Virus genome (UHGV): UHGV-0026213
Reading direction: 5' to 3' (one strand)
Length of the DNA stretch: 64,000 nucleotides
From: a virus
Part shown: positions 3,001 to 56,439 of the stretch, in pieces
How positions within the stretch are numbered: the stretch's first letter is position 1
Layout: every line of letters starts with the position of its first letter
Made by a program: the position numbers and the translations under genes
Notes under the pieces: model-generated
Databases searched by the model: none
Told to the model about the DNA's origin: nothing
What the model saw: the letters and a program-made list of their open reading frames with translations, nothing else

Positions 3001-4375
3001 CCAAACCGGTAACCAATCGACTACGGGGAATGCTGCGACTGCGACTAAGCTCCAGACTGCGCGAAATATAGGTGGCGTAGCTTTTGATGGTACCAAAGAC
3101 ATCAACTTACCTGGCGTAAACCAAACGGGTAATCAGTCGACCACCGGAAACGCGGCCACGGCAACGAAGTTGCAAACTGCAAGGACCATCAACGGTGTTC
3201 CGTTTGATGGCACTAAAAACATCGAAATAACGGCTGAAAGTTTAAACCTTGGGCAAACTGTAGAATTGGCCGGTGGGTCATTGCAGAAGAAACAGAACGG
3301 TGCCGATATTCCAGATAAAAGGAAATTCTTACGAAATGTTGGTGCCCCGAACACAACAACCATATCTTTTAATGGTGGTGCCGGATGGTTCAAACTGGCA
3401 ACTGTAACGATGCCACAAGCCAGTTCCGTGGTTTACATAAGCCTGATTGGTGGTGCAGGGTTTAACGTTGGTTCCCCGCATCAAGCAGGTATCTCTGAGC
3501 TGGTTCTGCGTGCAGGAAATGGGAATCCAAAAGGTATTACTGGTGCGTTATGGCGACTGACCTCAGTCGGCTTCACTAATTTTGCATGGGTGAATACATC
3601 TGGTGACACTTACGATATTTATGTTGAAATAGGTAATTACGCCACCGGTGTTAATATTCAGTGGGACTACACTAGTAATGCCAACGTAACGATTCACACA
3701 TCGCCAAGTTATACGGCTAATAAACCCGCAGGACTAACAGACGGTACCGTCTATCTGATTTACAGCACACACAACAAACCTAACGCTGGTGACGTCGGTG
3801 CGTTACCGTCAGGGGGCGGTACTATAGGTGGCGATTTAACCGTTAACGGTAAATTGGTCACTAAGTACCCTGATTTTCGAATCGCTTACGGCAACTACGG
3901 CTTTATGTTACGTAACGATGGTGCCAATACCTATTTCTTAGTAACCGACGCCGGACAAGCTGCAACGGGTTCCTGGAACGGACTACGTCCGTTGTATTTT
4001 AATAACGCTAACGGCCAAGTAACCTTTGGTCATAACGTTACTGGCAGCGGTAACGGTTCGTTTAACGACGTACAGATTCGTTCTGACCGTCGTAACAAAC
4101 GTAATCTGGTGAAACTGGATAAAGCTTTGGATCGGTTAGAGTTACTAACCGGTTATTTGTACGAAATTCAGCATCCGGATGACGGTTGGCAAACCTCTGT
4201 AGGTCTAATTGCTCAAGACGCATTAGAAGCGTTACCTGAACTTGTGTCTGAGGATGATGATGCCATTTCAGGCGAAAAACGTTTACGTCTAAACTACAAT
4301 GGCGTTATTGCGCTGTTAGTAGAGGGTATGAAAGCGTTGCGTCAAGAGGTTAACGAAATTAAAGGAAGATCCTAA
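2..4375 (+). CDS. Long tail fibre protein, 5' partial (frame open from window start); coiled-coil N-terminal part, about seven ~34-aa fibre repeats, C-terminal intramolecular chaperone (peptidase S74-like) domain
   Basis: Frame is open from position 2 with no stop before the first listed start at 188. Repeats of the form GNQxTTGNAATATKLxTARxIGGVxFDGxxDI match the phage tail fibre repeat pattern. C-terminus RSDRRNKRNLVKLDKALDRLELLTGYLYEIQ...EGMKALRQEV matches self-cleaving chaperone domains of endosialidase and L-shaped tail fibres. Conserved NGADIPDK(x)F(x)RN(I/V)G motif occurs twice. Confidence 0.85.
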   Translation, partial: ETAKQQTDTLASTVSEQAGTVATKTAEVSKKHAEVLAAKTAVDTVLQSVNEKAQAVATSEQSVTAAAADVTKKAETVTQQAGQVQQTATGVENTAASVEASKGAVEKIAAQVAKDKESSEGAATRSESAALRAEKIAAQGLIDASTTGKGIVKLNDTLTSESVTEAATPSTVKQLNDELQLKANKHSPNFTGKPSSPTPPKDSNDTSISTTAWVRDAIAELVGSSPETLNTLAELAEALGNDPNFATTITGELAQKQPLSPLLTAIAAVTTAANKLMYFTGSNKVRLTDFTETARSLLAKGSTADIINFLGLRTTVDKANGALQKNSNGADIPDKETFARNIGLSPDTYLRFRGEMPVDADINTFAPDANYTGTWAKSTSTNASMAKHFPEDGAVGYLEVYKAGNYSGAQRFTCRNGNVYNRMLSGAWNGANGPWSPWRMVTTGVRPLSTSIDLNSLGGAEHMGNWRNSSSSLAVFSRHYPEEGGGAQGVLEVMEGGLFGRLQRYTTRRGTMYVRGLTATWDSSNPQWEDWIQVGYQTDGAFFKANFNDLVKPGRFSVTGEATNGPLTGSSGETILGVCEVTLRLDGTGVEQNYTTYGTGVETKGRKFQRIRTGNAWSDWREVFTSYSLPLVLGIGGERANVDPLDWQTYDFKPGELICTPLNTMKNIPAGMDWGVIDGNLVSILVGPSDGASSARSMLVWRSTVSTANYRFFAVRIAGEKGSRTITPRQMPVLNAAHTWAEKQTFAKGLAGELTGNASTATKLKTARRIGGVAFDGSGDINLPGVNQQGNQNTTGNAGTATKLQTARNINGVRFDGSADININTLVGRGRVTALTGSNKGTPGIQMYEVYNNGYPTAYGNLLHLGGSTALGEGELLIGWSGTSGAHAPVYIRSRRDTADAPWSDWAQVYTARDSIPGVNTTGNQDTTGNAATATKLKTARRIGGVTFDGTGDINLPGVNQQGNQNTTGNAATATKLQTPRKIGGVNFDGSQDISLPGVNQTGNQSTTGNAATATKLQTARNIGGVAFDGTKDINLPGVNQTGNQSTTGNAATATKLQTARTINGVPFDGTKNIEITAESLNLGQTVELAGGSLQKKQNGADIPDKRKFLRNVGAPNTTTISFNGGAGWFKLATVTMPQASSVVYISLIGGAGFNVGSPHQAGISELVLRAGNGNPKGITGALWRLTSVGFTNFAWVNTSGDTYDIYVEIGNYATGVNIQWDYTSNANVTIHTSPSYTANKPAGLTDGTVYLIYSTHNKPNAGDVGALPSGGGTIGGDLTVNGKLVTKYPDFRIAYGNYGFMLRNDGANTYFLVTDAGQAATGSWNGLRPLYFNNANGQVTFGHNVTGSGNGSFNDVQIRSDRRNKRNLVKLDKALDRLELLTGYLYEIQHPDDGWQTSVGLIAQDALEALPELVSEDDDAISGEKRLRLNYNGVIALLVEGMKALRQEVNEIKGRS
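2270..3240 (+). repeat. Tandem in-frame ~100-120 nt coding repeats (fibre repeat units) inside the tail fibre gene
   Basis: Repeated protein units ...TGNAATATKL(Q/K)TAR.IGGV.FDG..DINLPGVNQ(Q/T)GNQ.T... in the translation; they create the spurious antisense ORFs 2773..3105 and 3133..3393. Confidence 0.8.
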
Positions 4376-5157
4376 TGGCAGTTGTCGGCGTAGGTGGTTG
4401 GATTGGTTCTTCAGCAAAAGCTGAAGCTGGTAACGAATGGATGTCTGGCGCGATGCGCACACTTGGTGTGCCGGTTCCAGGCTGGATGTCGCAATTGGCG
4501 GGAAAATCAAAAGAGGTCCATTATTCTATTGGTGCTAACCATAGCTATAATAAGGATACTCTTATTAACTATTTACGTTCTTTAGGCTCTACTGCTGTCG
4601 TTGTGACCATTACAGGGGATTTAGTGTCTTATAGTAGCGGGGTTCCTTGTTTAGAATTCCCTAGCAATCTTCCAAATTCGTATATTACACTCATCATCAA
4701 TCCTGGGGTTACAGTATACGGCAGAGGAGGCAACGGCGGTTCTAACTCACCAGGCGGTGCAGGTGGAACCGCAATACAGAACGGAATAGGAAACAGACTG
4801 CGTATAACCAACCGTGGCGCTATTGCCGGAGGCGGTGGCGGCGGTGGCGGCGGTAACAGGGGTAGACTAATATTTGGTGGTGGCGGTGGTCGCCCATTCG
4901 GTGCTGGTGGGTCTTCCTCTCATATGAGTTCCGGTGCGGCTGCTGGTACTATTTCCGCTCCTGGTAAAGGATCTGTTGGTGAGGGGTCTCTTAGTGCATA
5001 TACAGGCGGTTCGGGTGGTAATGTCGGTGCTGCTGGAGGAAGATGTAATACTCATGGTAACGGTACAGAATATAACGGCGGAGCAGCTGGTGCAGCTGTT
5101 ACTGGTAATGCGCCAAGATGGGACGCAGTAGGTGCAATATACGGTTCACGTGTTTAA
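4375..5157 (+). CDS. Glycine-rich tail-fibre tip adhesin-like protein (T2/S16 gp38-like, from recalled similarity)
   Basis: Start overlaps the fibre gene stop (TAATG) with AAAGGAAG RBS. N-terminus MAVVGVGGWIGSSA...WMSQLAGKS followed by Gly-rich motifs (GGNGGSNSPGGAGG, G9 run, GGGGGRPFGAGG). Position immediately 3' of a processed fibre gene fits a receptor-binding adhesin. Confidence 0.6.
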   Translation: MAVVGVGGWIGSSAKAEAGNEWMSGAMRTLGVPVPGWMSQLAGKSKEVHYSIGANHSYNKDTLINYLRSLGSTAVVVTITGDLVSYSSGVPCLEFPSNLPNSYITLIINPGVTVYGRGGNGGSNSPGGAGGTAIQNGIGNRLRITNRGAIAGGGGGGGGGNRGRLIFGGGGGRPFGAGGSSSHMSSGAAAGTISAPGKGSVGEGSLSAYTGGSGGNVGAAGGRCNTHGNGTEYNGGAAGAAVTGNAPRWDAVGAIYGSRV

Positions 5158-5677: not shown

Positions 5678-5711
5678 TTATTTTCAAGTCATAGTGCTTG
5701 AAAACATAATC

Positions 5712-5721
5712 GGGGGGGGGG
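5712..5721. repeat. Intergenic G10 homopolymer followed by TGA
   Basis: cggggggggggtgaaatg read directly; same GGGGGGGGGTGA string as at 6737. Confidence 0.7.
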
Positions 5722-5760
5722 TGAAATGCTTTAGCCAACATTTTATGACTCCCCTAACCG

Positions 5761-6291
5761 TTGGAGGTAAACTTTATGGGGCAATTCACACCAGATTTAT
5801 CATTAACTTCAACTAACATGGTTATATCGCTGATCAACTACGACCTTCAGCTCGATCTGCAAGAAAACGAGGTTGAGTTCAGCAACGTAAATCCTACTGA
5901 AGAAATGAATCGTGATACCACTGCCGTTGTAAAGATTAAGCGTCCTGGAAACAGAACGTTGCAGATCTATTACAACCGTTTAACCGCAGAGCGGTGGTTA
6001 AACCAGCAACCTATTCTGGTAAAAGTAATCGGGGAAGGGTTTACCACACACGATTTAATCGAAGCGATTAACGCAGCTTGTGGCAGTAACTTACAAGCTG
6101 AAGATCTAACAGATAATTCATTTACTGTAGGAAAAGACGCGGTAACGTTGCAGGTATCGCCTAGTTCACTAGGTTATAAAGGTCAATTCTCTGTTCTGGT
6201 TTTCGGTAACGGTGAAGAAGCCGCAGTAACAAAAGACGACGATTTAATCGTTACCGCAGATAATCGTGTATTAACTTTCGGAGATCATTAA
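5761..6291 (+). CDS. Hypothetical protein
   Basis: 176-aa ORF with GGAGG RBS 8 nt upstream of ATG. Confidence 0.55.
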   Translation: MEVNFMGQFTPDLSLTSTNMVISLINYDLQLDLQENEVEFSNVNPTEEMNRDTTAVVKIKRPGNRTLQIYYNRLTAERWLNQQPILVKVIGEGFTTHDLIEAINAACGSNLQAEDLTDNSFTVGKDAVTLQVSPSSLGYKGQFSVLVFGNGEEAAVTKDDDLIVTADNRVLTFGDH

Positions 6292-6305
6292 TGGCTAAAA
6301 CTTAA

Positions 6306-6575
6306 GTGGCGTTGGTATTTTTTACATCGATAACAATCTATCCGCAAATACTCTACTTATCTGAAAGTAACGAATTACTGGACGTTAAATATTACGTTGC
6401 GGATGCTTCCACAAAAGCATCGGTGGTAATGTTGACTATCTTGGTAACAATGTCTAAAGTCCATGGTGTTACTATTGATATCAACAATCTCGATGAAGTC
6501 CCTATTACGGAAGAACAAACCCCGGTTAAATTTATCGTTGGTACTGCCTTATCACAGAACGGCATGTCGCGCTAA
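6306..6575 (+). CDS. Hypothetical small protein (GTG start, weak)
   Basis: 89-aa ORF filling the gap between flanking genes; no strong RBS. Confidence 0.3.
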   Translation: MALVFFTSITIYPQILYLSESNELLDVKYYVADASTKASVVMLTILVTMSKVHGVTIDINNLDEVPITEEQTPVKFIVGTALSQNGMSR

Positions 6576-6610
6576 CCGGAAGAGCATTGGTTTAAAAATT
6601 GGAGGTTACA

Positions 6611-6748
6611 ATGGTTCAACCAATTGGAAAGAAACGTATCCATGAACTCGACAATTTCTCTGGCGATCTCAAAGGTGCGGTAGTTCTCCTTTCTAAGGAA
6701 GAAAAAGAATATAAAATTGATATTGCAGAACTTCAAGGGGGGGGGTGA
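6611..6748 (+). CDS. 45-codon ORF with strong RBS ending in GGG GGG GGG TGA; candidate N-terminal segment of the downstream esterase via frameshift or homopolymer length change
   Basis: GGAGG RBS 5 nt before ATG at 6611; translation MVQPIGKKRIHELDNFSGDLKGAVVLLSKEEKEYKIDIAELQGGG*. The downstream ORF frame is open from 6721 and is reached by a -1 shift or one extra G. Confidence 0.35.
   Translation: MVQPIGKKRIHELDNFSGDLKGAVVLLSKEEKEYKIDIAELQGGG
6737..6745 (+). repeat. G9 homopolymer at the junction between the 45-codon ORF and the esterase ORF
   Basis: cttcaagggggggggtgacg read directly. Confidence 0.7.
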
Positions 6749-8736
6749 CGGAACCGGATTATTACTTCGTGATCCCTATAGCCGGGCAATCTAATGCGAT
6801 GAGTTATGGTGAAGGATTGCCTCTACCAGCGACGTTGGACGCTCCCGATCCGCGGATTAAACAGATGGCACGCCGTACGAAGGTAACGCCTAATGGAGCT
6901 GATTGTAAGTATAACGACGTCATTCCAGCGGATCACTGTCTGCACGACGTGCAAGATATGTCCGTATTCTCGCATCCCAATGCCAATTTGGACAAAGGTG
7001 AATACGGATGTGTGGGTCAAGGTCTACACATCGCGAAGCGTCTTCTCCCGTATATTCCTAGCAACGCTGGTATCTTACTAGTACCCTGCGCACGCGGTGG
7101 TTCTGCTTTTACAGGTGGTGCAGAAGGTACCTTCGATGACGCCACAGGAGCCTCTGCGGCGTCATCGGTATGGGGGGTGGAAAAACCGCTTTATAAAGAT
7201 TTAGTTAGCCGGACCAAAAAAGCTCTGGAGGTTAATCCTAAAAATAAACTCCTGGCTGTAGTGTGGATGCAGGGAGAGTATGATCTGACTAAAGTAGGTT
7301 ACGCACAACAACCAGCGCTATTTAACGCTATGGTAGAGCGTTTCCGAACTGATCTCTCTGACCATCTCCCTCAGATGCCCGAGTACGACACCGCCGAAGT
7401 ACCATGGATCTGCGGGGACACTACCTACTATTGGAAGGAAAAATATCCTGCTCAATATGAAACCATATACGGTAATTATCGTAACAATGAACAAAAAAAT
7501 ATCTTTTTTGTTCCATTCATGTACGACGATAATGGCCAACGTGTACCGACTAATGATCCCACTGACGATCCTGATATCGCCGCTGCTGCTTACTACGGTG
7601 CTGCCTCCCGTAGTAATAAAAACTGGACGTCTGAAACAAGGAATAGCCATTTCAGTTCTTGGGCTCGACGCGGTATTATCTCAGAGAGAATAGCTGCTGA
7701 GATATTATCAAGAACAGCGATTGGTGCAATGCTCATGACGAAGAACGACACTAAAGAGCTCAAAGACAATATGAATGTGGTAAGAAGCTATACCCCATTA
7801 GTAGAGTCTGTGGGTTATAACGGACGTCGTGGAGATGGTTCCCTGAAAGGGCAAGGTTGGAACAATACCATTGATTGTAACGTAACCGTGCAAAAATCTG
7901 AGGATGGAAATGGACATTTCGTCGAATTAAGAAAGGCTGTAAGTAACAAACCTTGGAATGTAACCAGGTCAATGGCAACAGCTGCAGACATGATACGTTA
8001 CGGTGGACGTCTGACCGTTACTTTTAGACTAAAAGGTGATTTAGCAGCAAATCGTTTCGGGTTAGGACTTTATTGGCGTATCTCCGCGTCCGACCTACCT
8101 TCTGGTACTACACTTGCTGACGCTAGTGTGGCTGATACGAACCCGTACCTAATGTCTTTTTTCTTACAGACCGACGCTACGAATCTTTATCTGATGCATC
8201 ATAAAAAGCAGAATGTGCAATTAGGAACTTTCGGTGCGTACGATAATAACTGGCATACGCTTGAAATCATTTATCCGGGTGACAATAAAATCAAAGTCAC
8301 GCCTGTGCTTGACGGCAAGAATGGCACTCCATTTGATCTGGCGAACAGTACAGCTAAGACCAATTTGAACGAATTGGTTCTGACAGATATTACGAAAGTT
8401 ATTGCCTACGATATCGATATTTCGAAGTTTGAGATCTCGGTCAATCGTGATTCTGGTAGTATAGTGTTATCTGAGGAAGATGTATCGTCTTATGTGTATT
8501 TCCCAGCCACCAACCGTGGCGGCCAACTTACTATTCCTGATCTAGAATATAGCGTGGGTAGAAATATTCAGATCGTGGCAAATAAGGCTGGTTCGATCAC
8601 CGTTAAACCGGAAAATTCAAACGTTCTCATCACTCCAAAGAGTGGGACGGAAGGTCTTGCCAAACCCATTGAGACCAATGAAAGTATTACGCTAATGCAA
8701 GTTGGCTCCGATGGTAAAAGCTGGGTAGTTATTTAA
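6745..8736 (+). CDS. SGNH/SASA-like carbohydrate esterase with C-terminal beta-rich domain; candidate virion-associated polysaccharide deacetylase
   Basis: N-terminal VIPIAGQSNAMSYG resembles the GQSNM motif of sialate O-acetylesterase-like SGNH hydrolases. 663 aa; sits in the tail-fibre neighbourhood. Annotated GTG start is the last base of a G9 run. Confidence 0.55.
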   Translation: MTEPDYYFVIPIAGQSNAMSYGEGLPLPATLDAPDPRIKQMARRTKVTPNGADCKYNDVIPADHCLHDVQDMSVFSHPNANLDKGEYGCVGQGLHIAKRLLPYIPSNAGILLVPCARGGSAFTGGAEGTFDDATGASAASSVWGVEKPLYKDLVSRTKKALEVNPKNKLLAVVWMQGEYDLTKVGYAQQPALFNAMVERFRTDLSDHLPQMPEYDTAEVPWICGDTTYYWKEKYPAQYETIYGNYRNNEQKNIFFVPFMYDDNGQRVPTNDPTDDPDIAAAAYYGAASRSNKNWTSETRNSHFSSWARRGIISERIAAEILSRTAIGAMLMTKNDTKELKDNMNVVRSYTPLVESVGYNGRRGDGSLKGQGWNNTIDCNVTVQKSEDGNGHFVELRKAVSNKPWNVTRSMATAADMIRYGGRLTVTFRLKGDLAANRFGLGLYWRISASDLPSGTTLADASVADTNPYLMSFFLQTDATNLYLMHHKKQNVQLGTFGAYDNNWHTLEIIYPGDNKIKVTPVLDGKNGTPFDLANSTAKTNLNELVLTDITKVIAYDIDISKFEISVNRDSGSIVLSEEDVSSYVYFPATNRGGQLTIPDLEYSVGRNIQIVANKAGSITVKPENSNVLITPKSGTEGLAKPIETNESITLMQVGSDGKSWVVI

Positions 8737-8742
8737 TTTAAA

Positions 8743-8785
8743 CCGTAGGATGGACTAAGTCCATCCTACGGTTTTTATATTTTTT
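8743..8785 (+). terminator. Intrinsic terminator
   Basis: ccgtaggatgg-actaagt-ccatcctacgg hairpin followed by tttttatatttttt. Confidence 0.8.
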
Positions 8786-8787
8786 CT

Positions 8788-8812
8788 CAGATATATATTA
8801 CCTAGGAGAGAG
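8788..8812 (+). promoter_or_regulatory. Conserved promoter-like motif, copy 1 (cagatatatattacCtaggAgagag) with downstream palindrome
   Basis: One of four near-identical 25-bp motifs, each in an intergenic region upstream of a plus-strand gene block; followed by inverted repeat gagtgaa...ttcactc. Confidence 0.6.
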
Positions 8813-43562: not shown

Positions 43563-43605
43563 CTCCTACCCTCTAAGAGGGTAGGAGTAGCACGTTTTTT
43601 TTTTC
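43563..43605. terminator. Bidirectional terminator
   Basis: ctcctaccctc-taa-gagggtaggag flanked by A-run and T10. Confidence 0.8.
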
Positions 43606-43818: not shown

Positions 43819-44023
43819 ACAGCTCTCCATTTCAAAAGGAAGGTGGTCTAAGACCGACGTGTGTTACAACCGAAGCATAAGATAGCTCCTCCCCGTAGGG
43901 AGGAGTAGAGTGCGCGAAAAAAGTGGCCTGCTTAACTAAACGATGGGTTTAAGAAAAGTGTTGATAAAAAGCTTTACCAACGTCAGGTCACAATATATAA
44001 ACACAACGTAAGAAAAAGGGGAA

Positions 44024-44989
44024 TTATTGCGGAGGTGATGTCGGACCATGTTTACCTTGGTGAATGTGAACGCTAAAGGTAATACCGGAAATAATGGCAT
44101 CTTTAACCGTAAAGACACCCACACCTTCACCCGTACCACCGTATTTGAAGTTCTTAGCAACTTCCAAATTACCGGTGAACATCGCTTCCTTCCCTTCTTG
44201 TTTAAAGTTCGGCGTTTTAAACGTTGTCGAACTGCCCGCTTCTGTTAACCAGGTTTGTGTTTTAAACGTAACGGAACTCGCTGCTTCCGTATTGCGGACT
44301 TCGCATTTTTCATTAATCGTTTTCGTTTCCAGGTTAATAGAACGCTTTGAATAAATGAACGCATCTTCTTTGTTGATGTTCACTTTTGAAAGCATCGCAT
44401 TCTCAAACCCGAGATCATCTTCAACCGAGTTAATGTAATACTTGTTTCCTTTATGGTCAACGCACTGCCACGTACCGTTTGCATTATCAAACTGAAACAA
44501 CCACGCCGCTTTCTCGCCATTCACCATACTCGTTCTTAGCGTGATATGTTTGTCAATCGTCGAAACGTTCAACACATACGCATTGGACAAGTCATCCGCC
44601 ATTTGGTTTTCAGGGTCAGCCGACCACGCATAAACCGCATCTTCTAATCGCTTAACGTTAGCGAAGTTCAGATCAATCCAAAAATAAATATCGGTTTTCC
44701 CCAAACGTAACAAGATAACGTAATCTTCTCGTTTAACGTCAGGGGAATTAATTCGGTTGGAGTTAAACTTCCACCACTTTGCTGTTATCGTGTTACCCGT
44801 CTTAATGGTTAGGTTATCTGTTGCACCAGATGTTTCGTGCGTCTTTTCAGTTGCTGAAGAAACAGATTGCACCACGGTAGGGTTAGCAAAGTTGGTTTCA
44901 ATTGGTATCACTTTTACCCGATCTGTACCACGGGGTTTGTCTTCCGCGACGATACCAATTGAGAAAAAATCAACACTGGATTTCTCCAT
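44024..44989 (-). CDS. Hypothetical protein (possibly structural)
   Basis: 321-aa ORF. Confidence 0.55.
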   Translation of the reverse strand: MEKSSVDFFSIGIVAEDKPRGTDRVKVIPIETNFANPTVVQSVSSATEKTHETSGATDNLTIKTGNTITAKWWKFNSNRINSPDVKREDYVILLRLGKTDIYFWIDLNFANVKRLEDAVYAWSADPENQMADDLSNAYVLNVSTIDKHITLRTSMVNGEKAAWLFQFDNANGTWQCVDHKGNKYYINSVEDDLGFENAMLSKVNINKEDAFIYSKRSINLETKTINEKCEVRNTEAASSVTFKTQTWLTEAGSSTTFKTPNFKQEGKEAMFTGNLEVAKNFKYGGTGEGVGVFTVKDAIISGITFSVHIHQGKHGPTSPPQ

Positions 44990-45018
44990 CGGGACGTTCC
45001 TTAGATCGGAATTGAATT

Positions 45019-45044
45019 CAGATATATATTACTTAAGTGAATAG
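45019..45044 (+). promoter_or_regulatory. Conserved promoter-like motif, copy 3 (cagatatatattacttaAgtgaatag)
   Basis: Lies in the divergent intergenic region upstream of the 45.1-49.3 kb plus-strand block. Confidence 0.6.
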
Positions 45045-45410
45045 GGGCTGAAGTGCCAGTTCAGCCACTACGGACACGTTTCATTCGAAACGGATTGATT
45101 AAACCATTTGGGGAGACAGATCATGTCTACTAAAAAGAAAGAAAGTCTCAATGAGCTGCTCAAACGGCTTAAAGACTACACTCCATTTAGTACCTTCCGA
45201 TAACAGGTACTAAAATTTTACAGTCTGTCCCTTTATTCTGCTACTCGGGATACCGGTAGGGGGTAGGGGGCATTATGTATACGGATATAAATAGCGGAGG
45301 TATACGGAGTATACCGACATACTCTTCCCAGAGGAACGTAGTGACTTCCTTATACCTCTTTTACAATCCATAATAATAGCCTTCCCTTCATTGGGATTAG
45401 CGAGTAAATC

Positions 45411-46148
45411 ATGAGAGAATTATTAGACGATATCTTTACCAACACCAGTTTAGAACTTTCTTCTACGGTGGTTAACGAACTAATAGGGCAAACCCAACCT
45501 GCTAAGTTAATCGATGTTGGAACAATTAAACCTGAAGATTATCCAGACAGTGACGTTATCGACTGTATGATTGACGAATACGTGATAGGAAGTTACGCCA
45601 ACCGCGTCTTCTTTGTTATTAATACCGAAACCAGTGTCATGTTAATCTATAAGTTGATCAGTGATGCCGAACTTGAAGTTGTGGCTGACCACATTCGTCT
45701 TCTTGCGAACACACCTACTAGTATCGCTGATGTGCTTATTGGGAACGGTTGGGCTTTACCACCACTATTCTCTTACTTCCCTCTGTTTAGAAATGGGATA
45801 GGGTTACTCCGAAATGCAGAAAATCTTCCCGATAACGTCGAGTTATCACTGCTTGGACCCGGCATCGATCTTTGTCCATTAGAAGACGAGGGCACGCTAT
45901 ATGGTTTGCGCATCTATGTTTCTGTGTTAAACGGATACCGCGTTATTGAACTAATTGCATCCGACTTAGCAAAACAGATCCCAGATGTGGAAACGATTTC
46001 TAAAGCCACCCACCTGGTTGAGATTAACTCAGATGATCCCTTATTGAAATATCACGAGAAAATTGATCTTCGTAAAATCGCCACGATGAGAGGGTGGGGT
46101 TGTGCTGAGATTACGAAGGACTATCTGCTGTTAATTAAAACCGCGTAA
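45411..46148 (+). CDS. Hypothetical protein, loosely related to the GW...LLF C-terminal family
   Basis: C-terminus RGWGCAEITKDYLLLIKTA. Confidence 0.55.
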   Translation: MRELLDDIFTNTSLELSSTVVNELIGQTQPAKLIDVGTIKPEDYPDSDVIDCMIDEYVIGSYANRVFFVINTETSVMLIYKLISDAELEVVADHIRLLANTPTSIADVLIGNGWALPPLFSYFPLFRNGIGLLRNAENLPDNVELSLLGPGIDLCPLEDEGTLYGLRIYVSVLNGYRVIELIASDLAKQIPDVETISKATHLVEINSDDPLLKYHEKIDLRKIATMRGWGCAEITKDYLLLIKTA

Positions 46149-46177
46149 TTAAGAAAACCGAAAAAGGAGAATATACC

Positions 46178-46732
46178 ATGTTTCAAACTGAACTGAAAAA
46201 TGAAATTATCCAAACCCTTGAAAAGGGCGTAGGCGAACATTTCTTTGTCCGTCCTTATACCGTACTGACCAATACCATTATTCAGCCTGGTGCGATGATA
46301 GTAGGGGTAAGTGTACAAGCTGTAGAGGAAACCCCGCTGCGTCGTAACATCACACGTAAAACCCATATCCCATTTAAAACAGGTTTTACAGATTACCTTC
46401 AGAGCTTACTGGGGGATAGCGCTTGGAAAACAGGCAGCTTCTTCCACGAAGGGAAGACTTCCACGCTGGTTTATAAAGAGAGCACCAAGTATCTGGTTGA
46501 TTTTCTCTTAGCGCGTCAGTATACTTTCTTTCCAACCCCTACTGACTGCACCCCAGACAACCCAGGTAAGTTATTAAACCAAAGCGAAGCCGAGGCACTC
46601 TTTACAAGACTTCGGAATGAACAGTGCGATGTTGACGACTGGGAAACGTTGATCGCGGTCGCTAAAGCCCACGGTTGGTATACCGTACGTAAAATCGGCC
46701 AGCAGCTGTTGTTCTTAGCTTACCCTGCTTAA
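46178..46732 (+). CDS. Hypothetical protein, GW...QLLF C-terminal family
   Basis: C-terminus AHGWYTVRKIGQQLLFLAYPA. Confidence 0.6.
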   Translation: MFQTELKNEIIQTLEKGVGEHFFVRPYTVLTNTIIQPGAMIVGVSVQAVEETPLRRNITRKTHIPFKTGFTDYLQSLLGDSAWKTGSFFHEGKTSTLVYKESTKYLVDFLLARQYTFFPTPTDCTPDNPGKLLNQSEAEALFTRLRNEQCDVDDWETLIAVAKAHGWYTVRKIGQQLLFLAYPA

Positions 46733-46761
46733 GTAACGAAAAAACCTAAAGGAGAGTAAAA

Positions 46762-47913
46762 ATGCGAAATATTATTTCTAAACCAGGACATGCCAAGATC
46801 CTAAAAGAACTGATGGACAGATGCTATAATCGGACTTGGTCACTACCAAGCTTAACCATCGAATCTTCATTACAACGTGAGTTGTTTGGTTATAACTTGG
46901 GCTGCTGTGTACTTACTGAATACAATGAGATTATCGCACCTGTCGATGTCTGTACTTACGATGAAGAAATTGAAGGTTACAAGTTCGCGGTTTACACAAA
47001 TTGTGGACTAAATTACCGTAAACTCGTTGTTAGGGAAAAGAGTAGCAACCGGAAGATTATGTTTAAGGTCTTCCCAAGTGGTAAAGTCAGTAATTTATGT
47101 CTTCAGCTTGAGAAAGTGCCCTTTCACGGTGCAGCCATTTTAACTAAACCAGAACTCCTGTTATTAAGCGGGTTAATTGGCTTTGAAGTAAAAACCATCA
47201 AAGTTGAGCAGGAACTTACACGAAACGATTTCGGCTCAACTTGGTACGAAAGTTTCTTCCGCTACGAAATGTTAAGTGATAAAGCTATCAAACTCACTTA
47301 CCGTTCTACCGACGATATCGTTTACCACATTTTAATTAGCGGCGAACCCCACCAGATTATTGAAGACGAAGGAGAAAAATCAGTGTGCACCTTAAAAGAT
47401 GAATTAACTGATTTTGTTAACAAAATTGATAACGTGGGTATCAGTGAATTATTGTTCCCGATACAGCATCCAGAGTTGCTTGACGAGAAATCTGAAAACG
47501 TGGTTATGGGTGTGCATTTACTTCCTGACCATCTTGCTATCTACCGTACACTTTCTAAAAATCAACTTAAAGTGTGGTGCCTGTTAAAAGACCTTTTAAC
47601 AGAGGCGGGGTGGTCGTGTAGTGTAGATGTTAACTGTGAAGGAGTTGCGTTCTTCATCACAATAGGCAATCGTAGTTTTTCTGTCGATTTACCTACTCGC
47701 AGCTATTACAATTTCTTCCCGACCGCAGAAGGACGTACTGAAAAAGAACCCGCATTACTGCTCAGTGCTGAGGAGTCCAATGCGTTAATGACGAAACTAA
47801 AAGCGAAAGACGAGAAGCTGGATGCTTTACATCTACCTATAATCGGGAAAGACTACGGTTGGGCTGACGTGCAAAAATACGGCAGCCAACTGTTGTTTGT
47901 TGCCAACATTTAA
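46762..47913 (+). CDS. Hypothetical protein, GW...QLLF C-terminal family
   Basis: C-terminus DYGWADVQKYGSQLLFVANI. Confidence 0.6.
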   Translation: MRNIISKPGHAKILKELMDRCYNRTWSLPSLTIESSLQRELFGYNLGCCVLTEYNEIIAPVDVCTYDEEIEGYKFAVYTNCGLNYRKLVVREKSSNRKIMFKVFPSGKVSNLCLQLEKVPFHGAAILTKPELLLLSGLIGFEVKTIKVEQELTRNDFGSTWYESFFRYEMLSDKAIKLTYRSTDDIVYHILISGEPHQIIEDEGEKSVCTLKDELTDFVNKIDNVGISELLFPIQHPELLDEKSENVVMGVHLLPDHLAIYRTLSKNQLKVWCLLKDLLTEAGWSCSVDVNCEGVAFFITIGNRSFSVDLPTRSYYNFFPTAEGRTEKEPALLLSAEESNALMTKLKAKDEKLDALHLPIIGKDYGWADVQKYGSQLLFVANI

Positions 47914-47980
47914 TAAGTGAAACTACACTTTCTCTAACTGCCGCGCTTTAGTCGCGGCTTTTGTTAAGAAGGAAATAGAA

Positions 47981-48754
47981 ATGAAAGTCCATTTAGACGA
48001 TATCTTTAAAACCGAACCGTATATGATCGAAGGCCCGCTATCATCACTACTATTTGCCGATAGATTAGATCGTACGCTGCAATTACAATCGGTCGAATCT
48101 GCACCCGTTGATGATGTAGAGCGTTACGAGCGCATCAACCATACGCGGGGTGAGTATCGTCGCTATAAGCCAAATTCACTAAGCATCAAGCTCTGGCAAG
48201 TGAGCACAGGTAAAGTATTAACTTATCGCGCTGTTGGTAGTTATTACATTCAACAAGCCAAGGAATGGCTAGAGAAAGTTAAAGAACTGAACTTCGATCT
48301 ACTGAGCAAAAAACTGCGCGATCATAACGCCAGTTTGCCGATACGTAATTATTTCTCCACGATTGAAAATAGTCGTTGTTTCGTTTCTCGTGAATCCACG
48401 ATATTACCTGGGGATGATGTTCAGACGACACTAAAAGATGTGGTTGTGAAGAAAATCTTTCATGAATCTGAACACGTTGGGTTCCGTATCTACTTAACAC
48501 ACAAGAGACCATTTACCGTTATTCACGTTGATACCGCACCCGAAGGCTCAGCGGTTATTCGAGAACTTCCTGATGCTCGAGACCGTTGCCCTAATGAGCC
48601 GCTTTATTTAATGTCAGGAACAAAATCAACCGCGTTGATGTCCCGTTACAGCATGTTAGATGTTGTTGACGCTGCTATGAAACTAGGTTGGAAAGAAGTG
48701 CAGCAACATGGTAAACAATTGCTGTTTATTGCCGATGTAAAACTTAATCAATAG
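47981..48754 (+). CDS. Hypothetical protein, GW...QLLF C-terminal family
   Basis: C-terminus KLGWKEVQQHGKQLLFIADVKLNQ. Confidence 0.6.
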   Translation: MKVHLDDIFKTEPYMIEGPLSSLLFADRLDRTLQLQSVESAPVDDVERYERINHTRGEYRRYKPNSLSIKLWQVSTGKVLTYRAVGSYYIQQAKEWLEKVKELNFDLLSKKLRDHNASLPIRNYFSTIENSRCFVSRESTILPGDDVQTTLKDVVVKKIFHESEHVGFRIYLTHKRPFTVIHVDTAPEGSAVIRELPDARDRCPNEPLYLMSGTKSTALMSRYSMLDVVDAAMKLGWKEVQQHGKQLLFIADVKLNQ

Positions 48755-48766
48755 TGAGGTGGTACC

Positions 48767-49345
48767 GTGTACCGATTAATAGAAATGCGAAAAGACGTTT
48801 GGTTGGAAAACCTCGTCGATGGGGAGCTTGAGGGAATAGAGCTTTCCTTACCAGAAAGAGCGGACACGGTATTGGTCTTTCTGATAAAACAGGCAGCGAA
48901 TGAACCGGTAGGAATCTTCAGCGTGGACTATAAAGACCCACGAGGGATTCATTTACGGAACATTTGCAGTGGTTTAGAAAGCTTACCGGCTAATCCGTTC
49001 TTAAACTACGCAAAACGTAAACTCCAGCCTGGACAACATCTCTGGGTAGTTCTAGCGCCTGATACACGCATTATACGTGACGACCTGACTGCGTTTGTCC
49101 AAGCAACGAAAGTCAGTTTGTACAATCCTAATGCGGATCGTACCGATATGCCGTTTACAATCACCTTAGAAGACGATGGAACGCAAGAGGGTATTGAGGC
49201 AATTACGGAATTAGTAAACTCTTATCCGGTAGCGTCTATTGAGTTAGAAAACCCAAACCGATTACCGTTGGGTGATTTACTCGAATGGATTGAGCTGAAT
49301 ACCGAGTTCCTCATTAACTCCCGGCAGTACCGGTTCGATGTATAA
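48767..49345 (+). CDS. Hypothetical protein (GTG start)
   Basis: 192-aa ORF. Confidence 0.55.
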   Translation: MYRLIEMRKDVWLENLVDGELEGIELSLPERADTVLVFLIKQAANEPVGIFSVDYKDPRGIHLRNICSGLESLPANPFLNYAKRKLQPGQHLWVVLAPDTRIIRDDLTAFVQATKVSLYNPNADRTDMPFTITLEDDGTQEGIEAITELVNSYPVASIELENPNRLPLGDLLEWIELNTEFLINSRQYRFDV

Positions 49346-49349
49346 CATC

Positions 49350-49383
49350 GGTGGGGGTTTACCCCCCACCTTTTATTTTTTTG
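49350..49383 (+). terminator. Intrinsic terminator
   Basis: ggtggggg-ttta-ccccccacc followed by ttttatttttttg. Confidence 0.8.
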
Positions 49384-49406
49384 TTCGTTAATATTAAAAA
49401 TAATTT

Positions 49407-49431
49407 CAGATATATATTACTTAGGTGAGAG
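49407..49431 (+). promoter_or_regulatory. Conserved promoter-like motif, copy 4 (cagatatatattacttaggtgagag)
   Basis: Identical to copy 2 including the upstream A/T block; precedes the secreted-protein gene array. Confidence 0.65.
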
Positions 49432-49476
49432 TTACGATTAACTCTTTATACATTAACGCCATGAAGGAGCAAAACA

Positions 49477-49938
49477 ATGAAAATCTTCACTTCCTTTTTA
49501 ATCGCCCTTTTCGTAATCGGTTTCAATACTGCACACGCCGCTATCAATAACTGGGAACAAATACAAAACCCTGGCCAGGCAGTTTACGAAATTGAAGACA
49601 CCGCCGGAAACGGACTGTCTATCAACTGTGACACAGAAACTGCGAATCGCAAATTTTACGGTCGCATGGTTTGGTATTACGGTGAACCCGTAGGTGCAAC
49701 TAACGCGGAAGATAACACGTTGGATATTGTCGTAAACGGCAAGACCTATAACATCCCTACCGTGGACGGTAGTGACAAAGCAGAACACGCTTGGGTTGCT
49801 TTCGTTAATGCTATCGGTAATGCCAAAACTTTCAGTGTGAGTATCAATGGTAACGACACCGCTAACTTTACCGTAGAAGGCGAACGTCTGTCTGAAACTT
49901 TCTTCCAGAACTGTGGACACACCCGTCCTAACAAATAA
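49477..49938 (+). CDS. Small secreted protein 1 (signal peptide)
   Basis: MKIFTSFLIALFVIGFNTAHA signal peptide; AAGGAG RBS. Confidence 0.6.
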   Translation: MKIFTSFLIALFVIGFNTAHAAINNWEQIQNPGQAVYEIEDTAGNGLSINCDTETANRKFYGRMVWYYGEPVGATNAEDNTLDIVVNGKTYNIPTVDGSDKAEHAWVAFVNAIGNAKTFSVSINGNDTANFTVEGERLSETFFQNCGHTRPNK

Positions 49939-49960
49939 CTATTAGTCTTTTTTAGAGTGC

Positions 49961-50353
49961 GTGAAAATGAATATCAGAACTATACTTTATATCATCATTA
50001 TTTTCTGTGCGGTCGGAATTACTGGCACTTATGCTTTCGGTGATTCGGATGTCCGCTATTACGAACCGGCTCCTGACTCACCGATTATCAACCCGGATGA
50101 GACGCCTGCGTTAATGCGCAGTTTCGGTAAACTGCAAGTTTATCGTTTAGTGCGTGGTGAAACCTGTACGGGTTTACTCATTGCTGACACCCGTGCACAA
50201 GTCTACCAACGTCTAACCGATATCGCCTGCGAACAACCAAAAGTCATGTCGGTTAGTATCCATCCGCTATCAGTTGGTAACTATACCGCTGTGGACTTCT
50301 TTCACAACGCCGAATTAATCGGGCGCGTTACCTTAAATCGTCCTGCCGAATAA
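49961..50353 (+). CDS. Small secreted or membrane-anchored protein 2
   Basis: N-terminal hydrophobic segment ILYIIIIFCAVGITGTYA. Confidence 0.55.
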   Translation: MKMNIRTILYIIIIFCAVGITGTYAFGDSDVRYYEPAPDSPIINPDETPALMRSFGKLQVYRLVRGETCTGLLIADTRAQVYQRLTDIACEQPKVMSVSIHPLSVGNYTAVDFFHNAELIGRVTLNRPAE

Positions 50354-50371
50354 TCTAAAGGAGTAGTTATA

Positions 50372-50857
50372 ATGAAACGTTTACACACATTGATGTTCTT
50401 TCTGGTTTTCTTGTTTATCGGTACCACGCCAACTGTAGATGCGGCCTCCGTAGACGAATTGCTTACCTGCGATGGAAACGCTTGGGAAGGTCAGCCAAAT
50501 GCGTGCCCAAACATCAACGACTTGTACGATACCGATAAGTCGTTTAAAGCCGTTGTTGATAAAACATTAGACCCTGTGGGGCTGGATGGTATGTTCGGCT
50601 CTAAAGGTTACATGGATGGTCCTGGCGGTAACATGTATCCGGTAAACATCAACAACAAAATCTGGATTGAAAGTGGCGGTTGTAAAGCTAACGCTTGTGG
50701 TTGGGAATACATCGTAACGCTATACAACCCACACACCAAGAAACTCGTCGGCTATTACTACAACATCGACCCCGGTTATCTGATTTGGTTCGGTGATATC
50801 GGTGTTGCTGAATTCGCTTACCTGGTTAAGAAGTACGTAGAACAATCTAAATACTAA
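50372..50857 (+). CDS. Small secreted protein 3
   Basis: MKRLHTLMFFLVFLFIGTTPTVDA signal peptide. Confidence 0.6.
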   Translation: MKRLHTLMFFLVFLFIGTTPTVDAASVDELLTCDGNAWEGQPNACPNINDLYDTDKSFKAVVDKTLDPVGLDGMFGSKGYMDGPGGNMYPVNINNKIWIESGGCKANACGWEYIVTLYNPHTKKLVGYYYNIDPGYLIWFGDIGVAEFAYLVKKYVEQSKY

Positions 50858-50868
50858 GGACTTTTATC

Positions 50869-51279
50869 ATGAAAACTATCATTAATACTCTTCTCATTGC
50901 AATTGCTGTTCTGTTCTCTGTCAACGCTACAGCAAAGACAATACAGTTGCCAGACAATATTAAGTACGTCAATAGCACCGATGATTTCTATTGTACGGAA
51001 ATTGACGGCTTGTACTGTCAGGCAAAGAGCCTGTTTAAATACAAAGGTAGCAGATACGTATTCATCGTTGAGCAAGGTGGTGCCTGGTGCTACGACAGCC
51101 CAATGTCCGTACTCAACCTCGAAACGTGGAAGGCTCAGCGTCTCGAATACAACGACAAACGTCTGTGCTCTGGTAATAACAAACCATTCTTCAAAGTCGT
51201 AGATGGTGTGCCAATGGTAGGGATATTAGACACTTCGGAAAAACCTATCGTTGTAGCTATGGATAAACTTAAAATTTAA
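50869..51279 (+). CDS. Small secreted protein 4
   Basis: MKTIINTLLIAIAVLFSVNATA signal peptide. Confidence 0.6.
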   Translation: MKTIINTLLIAIAVLFSVNATAKTIQLPDNIKYVNSTDDFYCTEIDGLYCQAKSLFKYKGSRYVFIVEQGGAWCYDSPMSVLNLETWKAQRLEYNDKRLCSGNNKPFFKVVDGVPMVGILDTSEKPIVVAMDKLKI

Positions 51280-51289
51280 GGAGTAACTC

Positions 51290-51679
51290 ATGCGTCTCGT
51301 CTGCGTTTTAGCATTCTTCTTCTCCCTGAGTGTAGCAGCATCTACTCAAGTTAACGATTTACTGCTAACCCCAAACAACAATACCGATTACCAGTACAAT
51401 CCTCCTGGGTTTGAAGTTTGTGAAGTCGGTGAAACAATCTGCCAAGAAGTCGGCGCAGACGGGCGCTATATTCTGGTAAAAGCTGATGGTGGCACAATGT
51501 GTCCCGCAGGTTATTACTTTCTGCTCGATTCCGTCGCAAGAGAGGTTCTTCCTATCACCACAAAAACGTGCGACCCTACTGTTGTCTTAACTCTCGCTAA
51601 AAGCAAATCTCGCGACCGTTATCTGATTGTTATCGAAGAACGGGGCAAGATGGCTGGTGCTATCGAATTAGATCATTGA
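51290..51679 (+). CDS. Small secreted protein 5
   Basis: MRLVCVLAFFFSLSVAAS signal peptide. Confidence 0.6.
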   Translation: MRLVCVLAFFFSLSVAASTQVNDLLLTPNNNTDYQYNPPGFEVCEVGETICQEVGADGRYILVKADGGTMCPAGYYFLLDSVAREVLPITTKTCDPTVVLTLAKSKSRDRYLIVIEERGKMAGAIELDH

Positions 51680-51689
51680 GTGTAGTCTT

Positions 51690-51718
51690 GGCCCCGATAC
51701 GTTCGGGGTCCTTTTTAC
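51690..51718 (+). terminator. Intrinsic terminator
   Basis: ggccccga-tacgt-tcggggtc followed by ctttttacg. Confidence 0.65.
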
Positions 51719-51745
51719 GACATGTTTACCTAAAGGAGTATTAAA

Positions 51746-52222
51746 ATGCAATTATCTAACGTTTACCAAGCTGCGCAATTTCATCATGACCTGTCGGCTA
51801 AACCTGAACAAATTCGCCACAACTTAACGGTGGCCTGGAAACTGCTGCGTATCGCCGAAGCCTCCCGCCTTAACGATCAGTCGACGATTATCGAGACGGT
51901 GCGCACACTACATCCAGTCGACCTGGAAACAATCTGGACCTTTGATTTAACCCGAATTTATCACCGTCGTTTTAATGCGGCAGTTGATGCAATCCGTCCT
52001 TACTTTCATCACCTGCGAACAACACGCGAAAATGACACCGCACTTGAGTGGGTATTGGTACAAAGCGTATGGAGCGACTACATTTATCTCCTTTCTTTAG
52101 AGACGGGTGAATGTATCGTTGCTAACGAAGTTTTTTCAAGTAACGCAGAAATGTATCGTTCCTTCGCGACGATTAAAGGTGAAACACAACCTATTTTATC
52201 ACTCACGCACTTAGGGCTGTAA
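51746..52222 (+). CDS. Hypothetical protein
   Basis: 158-aa ORF preceded by tttacctaaaggagtattaaaATG. Confidence 0.6.
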   Translation: MQLSNVYQAAQFHHDLSAKPEQIRHNLTVAWKLLRIAEASRLNDQSTIIETVRTLHPVDLETIWTFDLTRIYHRRFNAAVDAIRPYFHHLRTTRENDTALEWVLVQSVWSDYIYLLSLETGECIVANEVFSSNAEMYRSFATIKGETQPILSLTHLGL

Positions 52223-52224
52223 TT

Positions 52225-52258
52225 AGCCCGGCCCCGTTTACTCGGGGCTTCTTTTTTT
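52225..52258 (+). terminator. Intrinsic terminator
   Basis: agcccggccccg-ttta-ctcggggct followed by tctttttttg. Confidence 0.7.
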
Positions 52259-52278
52259 GATCTAAAAGGAAAGACCAG

Positions 52279-52887
52279 ATGAACGAAATTACATTAGTTC
52301 GTTTTCTTGAAGCGATGCAAAATGCAGAGCGCTTTTCACATACGCCTTTATTCATTGACTTAATGGAAGAAGAAGTAGAGGGCTTCCTGGCGTACCCTCG
52401 CTTACGGGAATATTTTAAACGCAAAACACCGACTGCTTACGAAAAGTTGGTTTACGCGCTTGAGAACAGTACAACATTGTTAACGTCACCTTTTAAGGCG
52501 TTGGAGGCTTTAGACCCGGCTGGTACCACAAGTATCCCACAACGTGTTGTGTTCTACTATATCGACCACGATCGAATTAAAGCCGATGTTGTTAACTGGA
52601 TCTCTGAAAACGCAGTTCCTGAAACACGCACTTTTAATCTCTGTCCTGTAGAAGAAGGGTGGAAGGTCGGTAGCCACTATTCTTACCCGTACCAATCCAT
52701 TAAATCGCCGTTTTTATATCCGGTTTATCTGGATGATGTTACACCTGGAAATTGTATCCCGGTAACAAATCTGATCTGTACATTGACAATGGAAGTCTTA
52801 GCCACAAAGGCGGGACAGGTTTGGGTAGAAAACACGAAGAACGTCGATTATTGGACTTCAATGGGTTATCACCTGTACACCAAATAA
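52279..52887 (+). CDS. Hypothetical protein
   Basis: 202-aa ORF. Confidence 0.6.
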   Translation: MNEITLVRFLEAMQNAERFSHTPLFIDLMEEEVEGFLAYPRLREYFKRKTPTAYEKLVYALENSTTLLTSPFKALEALDPAGTTSIPQRVVFYYIDHDRIKADVVNWISENAVPETRTFNLCPVEEGWKVGSHYSYPYQSIKSPFLYPVYLDDVTPGNCIPVTNLICTLTMEVLATKAGQVWVENTKNVDYWTSMGYHLYTK

Positions 52888-52892
52888 CGTTT

Positions 52893-52935
52893 GGGAGAAC
52901 CTTCGGGTTCTCCCTTTCTTTATTTTTTTCTTTTT
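52893..52935 (+). terminator. Intrinsic terminator
   Basis: gggagaacc-ttcg-ggttctccc followed by tttctttatttttttcttttt. Confidence 0.8.
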
Positions 52936-52965
52936 ACACCACACTCCGTCTTTATGGAGGTGGGT

Positions 52966-55470: not shown

Positions 55471-55639
55471 TTGGTTCCGTCGTATTGTGGATGCGGCAGG
55501 GTTTGGCTTCATGTCCATTCTAGCGGTTCTTTATGTCATGTTTTGTGTGGTGATGATTTTATGGGTAGTTTCATCTTATCTGATTAAACTATCGTGGGGT
55601 TCAATTTGGCGTCAACGCGAATGCGAATGGCGGAATTAG
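55460..55639 (+). CDS. Small membrane protein
   Basis: Hydrophobic segment GFGFMSILAVLYVMFCVVMILWVVSSYLI; GGAG RBS before ATG at about 55460. Confidence 0.5.
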   Translation: MQTDWFRRIVDAAGFGFMSILAVLYVMFCVVMILWVVSSYLIKLSWGSIWRQRECEWRN

Positions 55640-55649
55640 GAGAGGGAAT

Positions 55650-55748
55650 ATGGTTGTAGGGGTTCTGTTAACACTTGGCTCGTTGTGGTTAATTGGTAAA
55701 GGTTTAAACTTGCTGATTAAACGTCACCGTTGGGCGTTTGAAGATTAA
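55650..55748 (+). CDS. Small membrane peptide (32 aa)
   Basis: MVVGVLLTLGSLWLIGKGLNLLIKRHRWAFED; AGGAGAGGG RBS. Found by reading; below the ORF-track length cutoff. Confidence 0.35.
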   Translation: MVVGVLLTLGSLWLIGKGLNLLIKRHRWAFED

Positions 55749-55805
55749 CCACCCAAATAATCCAGAAGATACCCTCCGGTGTGAGGGTATTGACAGGAGC
55801 AGAAA

Positions 55806-55934
55806 ATGACCACGATAAACGCTACGAATGTAGCGATATCCGCACTATACGACGCGGAACTTTCATGGGGTGGATTGATAATCACCACAGCCATATTAGC
55901 CGCTGCGGCTTTCGTCATCGCGCGTTGGTTTTAA
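55806..55934 (+). CDS. Small membrane peptide (42 aa)
   Basis: MTTINATNVAISALYDAELSWGGLIITTAILAAAAFVIARWF; CAGGAG RBS. Found by reading. Confidence 0.35.
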   Translation: MTTINATNVAISALYDAELSWGGLIITTAILAAAAFVIARWF

Positions 55935-55965
55935 TTTTACTTTTTTGCGTCTCTAAGGTTTGCAA

Positions 55966-56439
55966 ATGGAAATTTATTTGTTGAACGCATCTTCTAAAGT
56001 CGGTGAGCGTCAAGCTGCCGATTTACTCAAACTACACTACCGTTACTTAGACCACCAGGCCACGTTACTGAAAATCAAAATGTCGGTGCCGAAGTTAAAT
56101 GCGCGACAGCTGATCGAAGGTAACTGCATAGTTCTGGTGTATCAGGATGATGTCGCGGTAGGATACTGTAGTTATCGGAATCGTAACGGTTCACTTAAGA
56201 TACGTTCGGTATACGTGCTCCCAGACTATCGTCAACGGGGTGTAATGAAAGAGATTTTCAAAGCAATTGCAGCTATGCGAAATGTAAAGAAGCAAAAGAG
56301 TATTTCATCCGACGCGGCTATCAGGCGGTTTACTCACGCGATCGTGAGTGGGTCGATTTTAGCAAAACATTCTAAAAACAATAAAGCTCTCTTGGCGTAC
56401 CTCACTATGAGTGTGAGAAATTTACGTCAGGAGAGCTAA
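55966..56439 (+). CDS. GNAT-family acetyltransferase-like protein
   Basis: VYVLPDYRQRGVMKEIFKAI resembles GNAT motif A (R/Q-x-x-G-x-G/A). Confidence 0.45.
   Translation: MEIYLLNASSKVGERQAADLLKLHYRYLDHQATLLKIKMSVPKLNARQLIEGNCIVLVYQDDVAVGYCSYRNRNGSLKIRSVYVLPDYRQRGVMKEIFKAIAAMRNVKKQKSISSDAAIRRFTHAIVSGSILAKHSKNNKALLAYLTMSVRNLRQES

Follow-up and report, generated by a model that had tools for sequence, protein, structure and literature searches.

A poly-G tract of variable length separates an N-terminal module from a predicted O-acetyl esterase in a putative enterobacterial jumbo phage

The 64,000-nucleotide stretch of virus genome UHGV-0026213 analyzed here (the window, numbered from its first letter) is part of a 224,967-bp MEGAHIT metagenome contig (ENA ERZ27287186:k141_659670), and contains a predicted esterase gene that is split into two open reading frames (ORFs) at a run of nine G residues. 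The features of this locus are:

6601–6605, + strand: Shine-Dalgarno sequence GGAGG, with a 5 nt spacer to the ATG at 6611
6611–6736, + strand: 42-aa N-terminal module (N-module; MVQPIGKKRIHELD...AELQ), with which all alternative cassette genes at this genomic slot begin
6611–6748, + strand: 45-codon ORF (N-module plus GGG and TGA), the product of the out-of-frame G9 (P0135)
6737–6745, + strand: poly-G tract, G9 in the window, coding for a Gly linker; G7, G10 or G11 in other assemblies
6745–8736, + strand: 663-codon ORF from the GTG at 6745, the esterase minus the N-module (P0121)
6748–7710, + strand: predicted NanS (YjhS)-like SGNH/SASA 9-O-acetyl-sialate esterase catalytic domain (fused residues 45–366 against PDB 3PT5, E = 1e-121)
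7816–8448, + strand: NanS-p C-terminal lectin-like domain, DUF6645 (fused residues 402–612 against PDB 6YP6, E = 3e-36)
8449–8733, + strand: C-terminal extension of about 95 aa, absent from lambdoid NanS-p
8740–8784, + strand: intrinsic-terminator-like hairpin of 16 pairs with a T-run, just 3′ of the esterase stop

The first-pass annotation of this DNA had described the GGAGG, the ATG at 6611, the 45-codon ORF, the G9 run and a 663-codon ORF in a frame open from 6721, and all of these are present. The shorter ORF translates as MVQPIGKKRIHELDNFSGDLKGAVVLLSKEEKEYKIDIAELQGGG and closes with the codons GGG GGG GGG TGA; its stop at 6746–6748 overlaps the start of the longer ORF as GTGA, and the frame of the latter has a TGA at 6718–6720 and is hence open from 6721. 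Addition of one G fuses the two into a 708-aa protein, as had been anticipated, and a protein of this length (P0123) is encoded in other assemblies; the junction, ELQGGGVTEPDYY, gives ...AELQGGGVTEPDYY with three Gly residues, however, and not the four of the junction peptide first proposed. The statement that the esterase has no independent ribosome binding site (RBS) holds in part, with the qualification that the G-run itself could act as a Shine-Dalgarno-like element 0–3 nt from the GTG. Runs of G or C this long are out of the ordinary, with 0.12–0.14 runs of at least 9 nt expected by chance in the 64-kb window and two observed, this one and a G10 at 5712–5721; both are on the + strand, 1 kb apart in the tail-fibre module, and the next longest G/C runs in the window are 6 nt.

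The 663-aa ORF matches SASA (PF03629) and DUF6645 (PF20350) (E = 2e-31), the GQSN motif is kept, and the NanS-p proteins of lambdoid and Stx phages are 61–67% identical to it over the catalytic region. The product is therefore a predicted O-acetyl esterase of the NanS/NanS-p type, and O-acetylated O-antigen or capsule could equally well be its substrate. The poly-G tract falls exactly at the domain boundary, as the alignment with NanS (3PT5) begins at fused residue 45. The same catalytic domain is found in the Stx and lambdoid NanS-p proteins (phi24B gp84, 933W NanS-p, 6YP6) and in E. coli NanS/YjhS (3PT5), and with the NanS-p proteins the window esterase also shares the C-terminal lectin-like domain and the order of a small N-terminal domain, a linker, and then the esterase. 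In phi24B gp84, binding to the virion (capsid) is the role of the N-terminal DUF1737 (bioRxiv 10.64898/2026.04.10.717836), so that an esterase joined through a linker to a small virion anchor at its N-terminus has a precedent. The window gene departs from NanS-p in three respects, in that its N-module is not DUF1737, the esterase is longer at the C-terminus by about 95 aa, and the gene belongs to a tail-fibre cluster, in a lytic-type jumbo phage, instead of lying beside stx and lysis genes.

The N-module forms the N-terminus of proteins ranging from 98 to 710 aa in length, including proteins of 154–156 aa that align from end to end with phrog_9017 ('tail fiber protein') and are encoded by SPN3US-like and Erwinia jumbo phages. 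Several other N-module proteins naturally have GG or GGG at the same point. From this family annotation, together with the position of the gene, we infer that the module is a constant adaptor that anchors the enzyme to the tail. An assignment of the 45-aa ORF to DUF1737 was considered and rejected, as there is no Pfam match to it even at E ≤ 10 and the hhalign probability against the DUF1737 profile is 0.1%; the apparent reach of NanS-p tblastn matches into this ORF is alignment run-on. Neither a paralogue of the N-module elsewhere in the window nor a solved structure matching it was found.

Comparison with orthologues, suggested in the first-pass annotation as a check on the split, yields continuous reading frames. 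A query in which the two ORFs are fused finds orthologues of 706 aa with 88–92% identity and 100% coverage (P0001–P0003, on contigs of up to 226 kb), and these have no tract; two further proteins carry it in frame, P0123 with 708 aa and the junction QGGGV, and P0128 with 707 aa and QGGV. The junction DNA of the tract-less orthologues is CTTCAGGGCGTGACGG or CTTCAGGGCACGACGG (CAG GGC GTG/ACG ACG). That of the window, CTTCAAGGGGGGGGGTGACGG, has a net gain of 5 nt relative to these, and an in-frame junction would be G7 (+3) or G10 (+6).

The tract-bearing allele, CAA-Gn-TGACGG...GATTATTAC, was recovered by exact-sequence look-up in about 14 other public assemblies (numbered loci with the prefix L), and the length of the tract differs among them:

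G7, in frame, 707 aa: L026 (ERR10615549), L027 (ERR10789542)
G9, split, 45 + 663 aa: the window (ERZ27287186), L029 (ERR7738532), L035 (ERR2368357), L036 (ERR2367902), L037 (ERZ15610544)
G10, in frame, 708 aa: L020, L024, L028, L030, L031, L032
G11, split, 61 + 663 aa: L023 (ERR14760501)
At least G10, contig ends within the tract: L034

Both the polymorphism in tract length and the in-frame alleles are thus observed directly, and they fit the earlier proposal that the esterase is regulated by run length. The genomes that differ in the tract are otherwise very similar, with 0–19 single nucleotide polymorphisms (SNPs) per 4 kb in the flanks of the G7, G9, G10 and G11 alleles, and 3 SNPs in 4 kb between L024 (G10) and L026 (G7). 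Alignments of L023, L024, L026 and L028 contain otherwise only terminal gaps, so that the tract is the sole internal indel of this close group. The G9 form recurs on at least four haplotype backgrounds, and is called in MEGAHIT, SPAdes and Logan assemblies from different projects. Beyond the junction the 662 codons of the esterase are undisrupted in the window, as they are in each of the seven further loci checked (L003, L006, L007, L023, L024, L026 and L028), and the ratio of nonsynonymous to synonymous substitution rates (dN/dS) between the window and four of these seven is 0.33–0.51. Lengths that keep the frame are present in 8 of 13 samples, compared with an expected one third (P = 0.035).

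We lean, with slightly better than even confidence, towards a real, slippage-prone poly-G tract that is represented in the window by its OFF (split) state. The tract would have expanded from the GGGCG of the relatives, inside the Gly-linker codons that join the N-module to the esterase, and replication slippage would alter its length. A G7 or G10 tract would give one protein of 707 or 708 aa, consisting of the module, a GG or GGG linker, and the esterase, while with G9 or G11 translation would stop after the module to give a peptide of 45 or 61 aa. In the OFF state the esterase would either not be made, or be made at a low level and lacking the N-module through re-initiation at the overlapping GTGA. 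We infer that the differences in length have a biological and not a technical origin, and that switching would influence how the phage interacts with its host or with glycans; adaptive phase variation is a possibility only.

Several observations weigh against this reading, the first group of which concerns the accuracy of the sequences. All of the lengths are read from assembled contigs, the confusion of G9 with G10 is a classic homopolymer miscall, and some of the supporting contigs have low coverage, such as the G9 contig L037 at 2.3x. Moreover, L029 and the window do not differ over 4 kb, and the two may derive from one sample. The true tract of the phage in the window sample could therefore be G10 (or G7), within a 708-aa gene that is continuous in the usual way, and G9 a short-read artefact. 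The first-pass annotation had also named homopolymer error as an option; we regard this explanation as unlikely although of appreciable weight. The metagenome contig that contains the window (k141_659670) is MEGAHIT output that was not polished, G10 is the most frequent length with G9 and G11 as its ±1 neighbours, and assemblers evidently struggle at the tracts, with contig ends at L034, L028 and L029. Two of these breaks lie within poly-G itself, L034 ending in the esterase tract and L028 starting in an intergenic one (see below), which is only suggestive of mixed tract lengths within a population. A miscall is nevertheless hard to reconcile with a G9 consensus in four to five assemblies from different projects, made with three assemblers and spread over at least four haplotypes. 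Nor does it explain G7, a 3-nt difference present in two samples that is not a ±1 miscall and indicates that the tract truly varies.

Two other homopolymers in the window bear on the same question:

5712–5721, + strand: second poly-G tract, G10, intergenic, 55 nt upstream of the DUF7941 gene ATG at 5776
43595–43604: T10 tract, the tail of a terminator hairpin after a 420-aa gene

The T10 tract serves as a neutral homopolymer control, and is T8, T9 or T10 among 10 assemblies. Poly-T tracts are called well by short reads, and this variation argues, contrary to a miscall, that homopolymer polymorphism in the population is real. Long homopolymers thus appear to be generally length-polymorphic in this phage population, which supports real instability of the esterase tract; because the neutral tract varies as well, length variation by itself is no proof of a selected switch. 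The intergenic G-tract has lengths of G8, G9, G10, G11 and at least G12 across assemblies, and interrupted forms G4TG5 and G5AG4. It is contained in an AATC-G~10-TGAAATG element (window 5708–5728) that is kept even in relatives with 82% DNA identity, being G10 in E. coli 98232 (NZ_CP173450.1; L048, 5005–5014) and reading GGAGGGGG in Enterobacter ludwigii (NZ_CP134650.1; L049, ~4998–5010). In a predicted RNA hairpin its G-run pairs with a downstream CUCCCC (z = -2.66), and the element may be a leader or regulatory element.

The second group of opposing observations concerns the gene itself, and is best considered together with its setting. Judged from its sequence, the source of the window is a phiKZ/SPN3US-like enterobacterial jumbo phage of about 225 kb; an 859-aa phage protein is ~69% identical to those of Erwinia phages Asesino and phiEaH2 and ~58% identical to those of the SPN3US group. 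The order of genes is a gp34/37-like long fibre gene, two gp38-like adhesin genes, the DUF7941 gene, the esterase, and a strong terminator, and two features lie immediately upstream of the split gene:

5776–6291, + strand: DUF7941 virion-structural-protein gene, 171 aa, upstream of the esterase
6292–6610, + strand: ~320-bp segment, confined to tract-bearing alleles, that contains an 89-aa ORF (6306–6575) and a new RBS

In the tract-less relatives 3 nt separate the DUF7941 stop from the esterase ATG, and the ~320-bp segment is probably a scar of cassette exchange. Its 89-aa ORF has a weak match to the C-terminal end of the 842-aa phrog_33169 (E = 2e-4), and a remnant of the 3′ end of this ORF persists in L048 and L049. 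The slot that follows the DUF7941 gene is occupied in loci sharing the same gp38-like adhesin (L050–L057) by a 206-aa gene, a 731-aa gene, a 133 + 348-aa gene pair, or the esterase, and the first cargo gene always begins with the 42-aa N-module; in L055 the DUF7941 gene is itself a 644-aa form. The related 222-kb elements of E. coli 98232 and Enterobacter ludwigii have neither the esterase nor the gene that follows it, so its loss is viable, a point that also favours the OFF-state reading, and taken with the variable content of the slot this identifies the esterase as an accessory cassette. These two relatives are deposited as circular ~222-kb 'plasmids' (L048 and L049), and others are present as contigs of 156–223 kb in Salmonella enterica isolate assemblies. 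This points to hosts among the enterobacteria and to persistence in a carrier or pseudolysogenic state. Megablast searches of 6300–8800 and 44000–56000 against a phage collection found no close relative, the matches being of ~60 nt only. The sole nucleotide match in the 12-kb region is at ~49373–49447, where a stretch of ~60–75 nt shares ~90% identity with phages of the SPN3US-like and phiEaH2-like groups; it could represent a tRNA or other conserved small element.

Against this background the tract could be a truly unstable but non-adaptive hotspot, with G9 a loss of function in a dispensable accessory gene on its way to being lost and not a reversible switch of benefit to the phage, and we consider this account rather improbable. 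It draws on the absence of the esterase cassette from related genomes and its replacement by other cassettes at the slot, on the neutral T10 tract, which varies to a similar extent, and on dN/dS values that reflect moderate constraint. The esterase is also broken by other lesions, by a change of A6 to A7 in L051 (SRR17035120, ~4219–4225) and by a mid-gene break in L020 (CYGL01000001.1, 4036–4210), and these separate events fit plain decay of a dispensable gene equally well; L020 may be a low-quality assembly, with other ORFs broken too. The excess of in-frame lengths is weak and based on small numbers, the absence of the tract from most orthologues indicates that it is recent, and attachment to the tail through the N-module rests on family annotation and gene position. 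Decay does not readily account, however, for the intact state of the 662 downstream codons in every G9 or G11 genome that could be checked, or for the over-representation of lengths that preserve the frame. Furthermore, G9 and G10 are interspersed among the haplotypes, a pattern that implies either repeated change in both directions or repeated loss, and a coding homopolymer of 7–11 nt persists on diverged backgrounds, as in L020 and L035 compared with the window.

A different interpretation of the same layout is programmed recoding, in which G9 would be the functional state. Either tRNA-Gly would slip by -1 on G GGG GGG where the ribosome meets the UGA, or the RNA polymerase would stutter on the run, so as to give a fixed ratio of the 45-aa peptide to the 708-aa fusion. 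In formal terms the run conforms to X XXY YYZ, and the stop codon at its end is expected to pause the ribosome; the -1 frame is open across it from 6721, the phage's own RNA polymerases might be prone to slippage, and low-level slippage on a run of this kind is likely in any case. The organization also resembles the lambda G/GT -1 frameshift, with two overlapping ORFs, a -1 frame, a slippery run, and a location in the tail module. It differs from lambda in that the layout is not conserved, there is no stimulatory structure, and in-frame alleles are common. We found no stable structure downstream of the tract (fold of 6730–6850, z = -0.6; 49 of 200 shuffles fold as well), and the sequence downstream is the same as in the tract-less relatives. 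An SD-like element near a shift site favours a +1 frameshift in prfB, and by analogy the abutting element here would promote +1 shifting, which is unproductive. Because the two-frame arrangement is not conserved, with the relatives either tract-less or carrying the same allele in frame as G7 or G10, the -1 ribosomal slip and two isoforms put forward in the first-pass annotation are not borne out, and we regard programmed recoding as very unlikely.

The slippage-prone tract that we favour is best classed as a known kind of variation, homopolymer-tract ON/OFF variation in a phage host-interaction gene. Poly-G/C contingency loci are familiar in surface genes of Neisseria, Haemophilus and Campylobacter, where slipped-strand mispairing turns expression ON or OFF by changing the frame. 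The window tract has in common with these a coding homopolymer of 7–11 nt, an ON/OFF state set by the frame, and a second tract in the upstream non-coding region; it differs in being in a viral genome, and in being known here from assembled sequences. The closest phage parallel comes from Campylobacter phages of the Fletchervirus group, whose receptor-binding-protein genes contain hypermutable polyG tracts (Sorensen et al. 2021, Cell Rep 35:109214, as cited in PMC10877375 and PMC10579305). Both systems have a G tract inside a gene of the host-recognition module, the length of which toggles the reading frame. The polyG changes in Fletchervirus give rise to mixed phage populations, whereas the variation in the window phage is a polymorphism between assemblies only. 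The window phage is moreover a phiKZ/SPN3US-like jumbo phage of Enterobacteriaceae and thus has a different host, and its tract lies in an esterase interdomain linker rather than in a fibre protein, and in one allele lineage only. A full-text literature search found no earlier description of a tract of this kind from a jumbo phage of enterobacteria, and to our knowledge experimental documentation of such virion diversification is so far limited to Campylobacter phages.

We tentatively raise the further possibility, which we think doubtful as it stands, that the locus is a contingency locus, in which slippage in the linker poly-G reversibly sets whether the esterase is tethered to the tail by its N-module, or is untethered or absent. 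The upstream poly-G, in the leader of the same operon, would tune expression, and a mixture of virions would spread the risk across hosts or mucus glycans that do or do not carry O-acetyl groups. If this is so, poly-G phase variation in phages would extend beyond the Campylobacter phages, and to the tethering of an enzyme.

These observations have several consequences for SPN3US-like phages. In annotation, the 45-aa and 663-aa ORFs are better treated as a single gene that contains a tract of variable length than as two genes, and where isolates of the window phage are used for host-range work the length of the tract is worth checking. The 42-aa N-module marks a point of cassette exchange, and would be useful for engineering receptor-binding or enzymatic cargo in these phages. 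If the tract does switch, a single genome of a jumbo phage with hosts of the Salmonella/E. coli type would yield two sorts of virion, one that has an O-acetyl esterase tethered to the tail and one that lacks it, and this would be a cheap route to diverse interactions with the host or with mucus.

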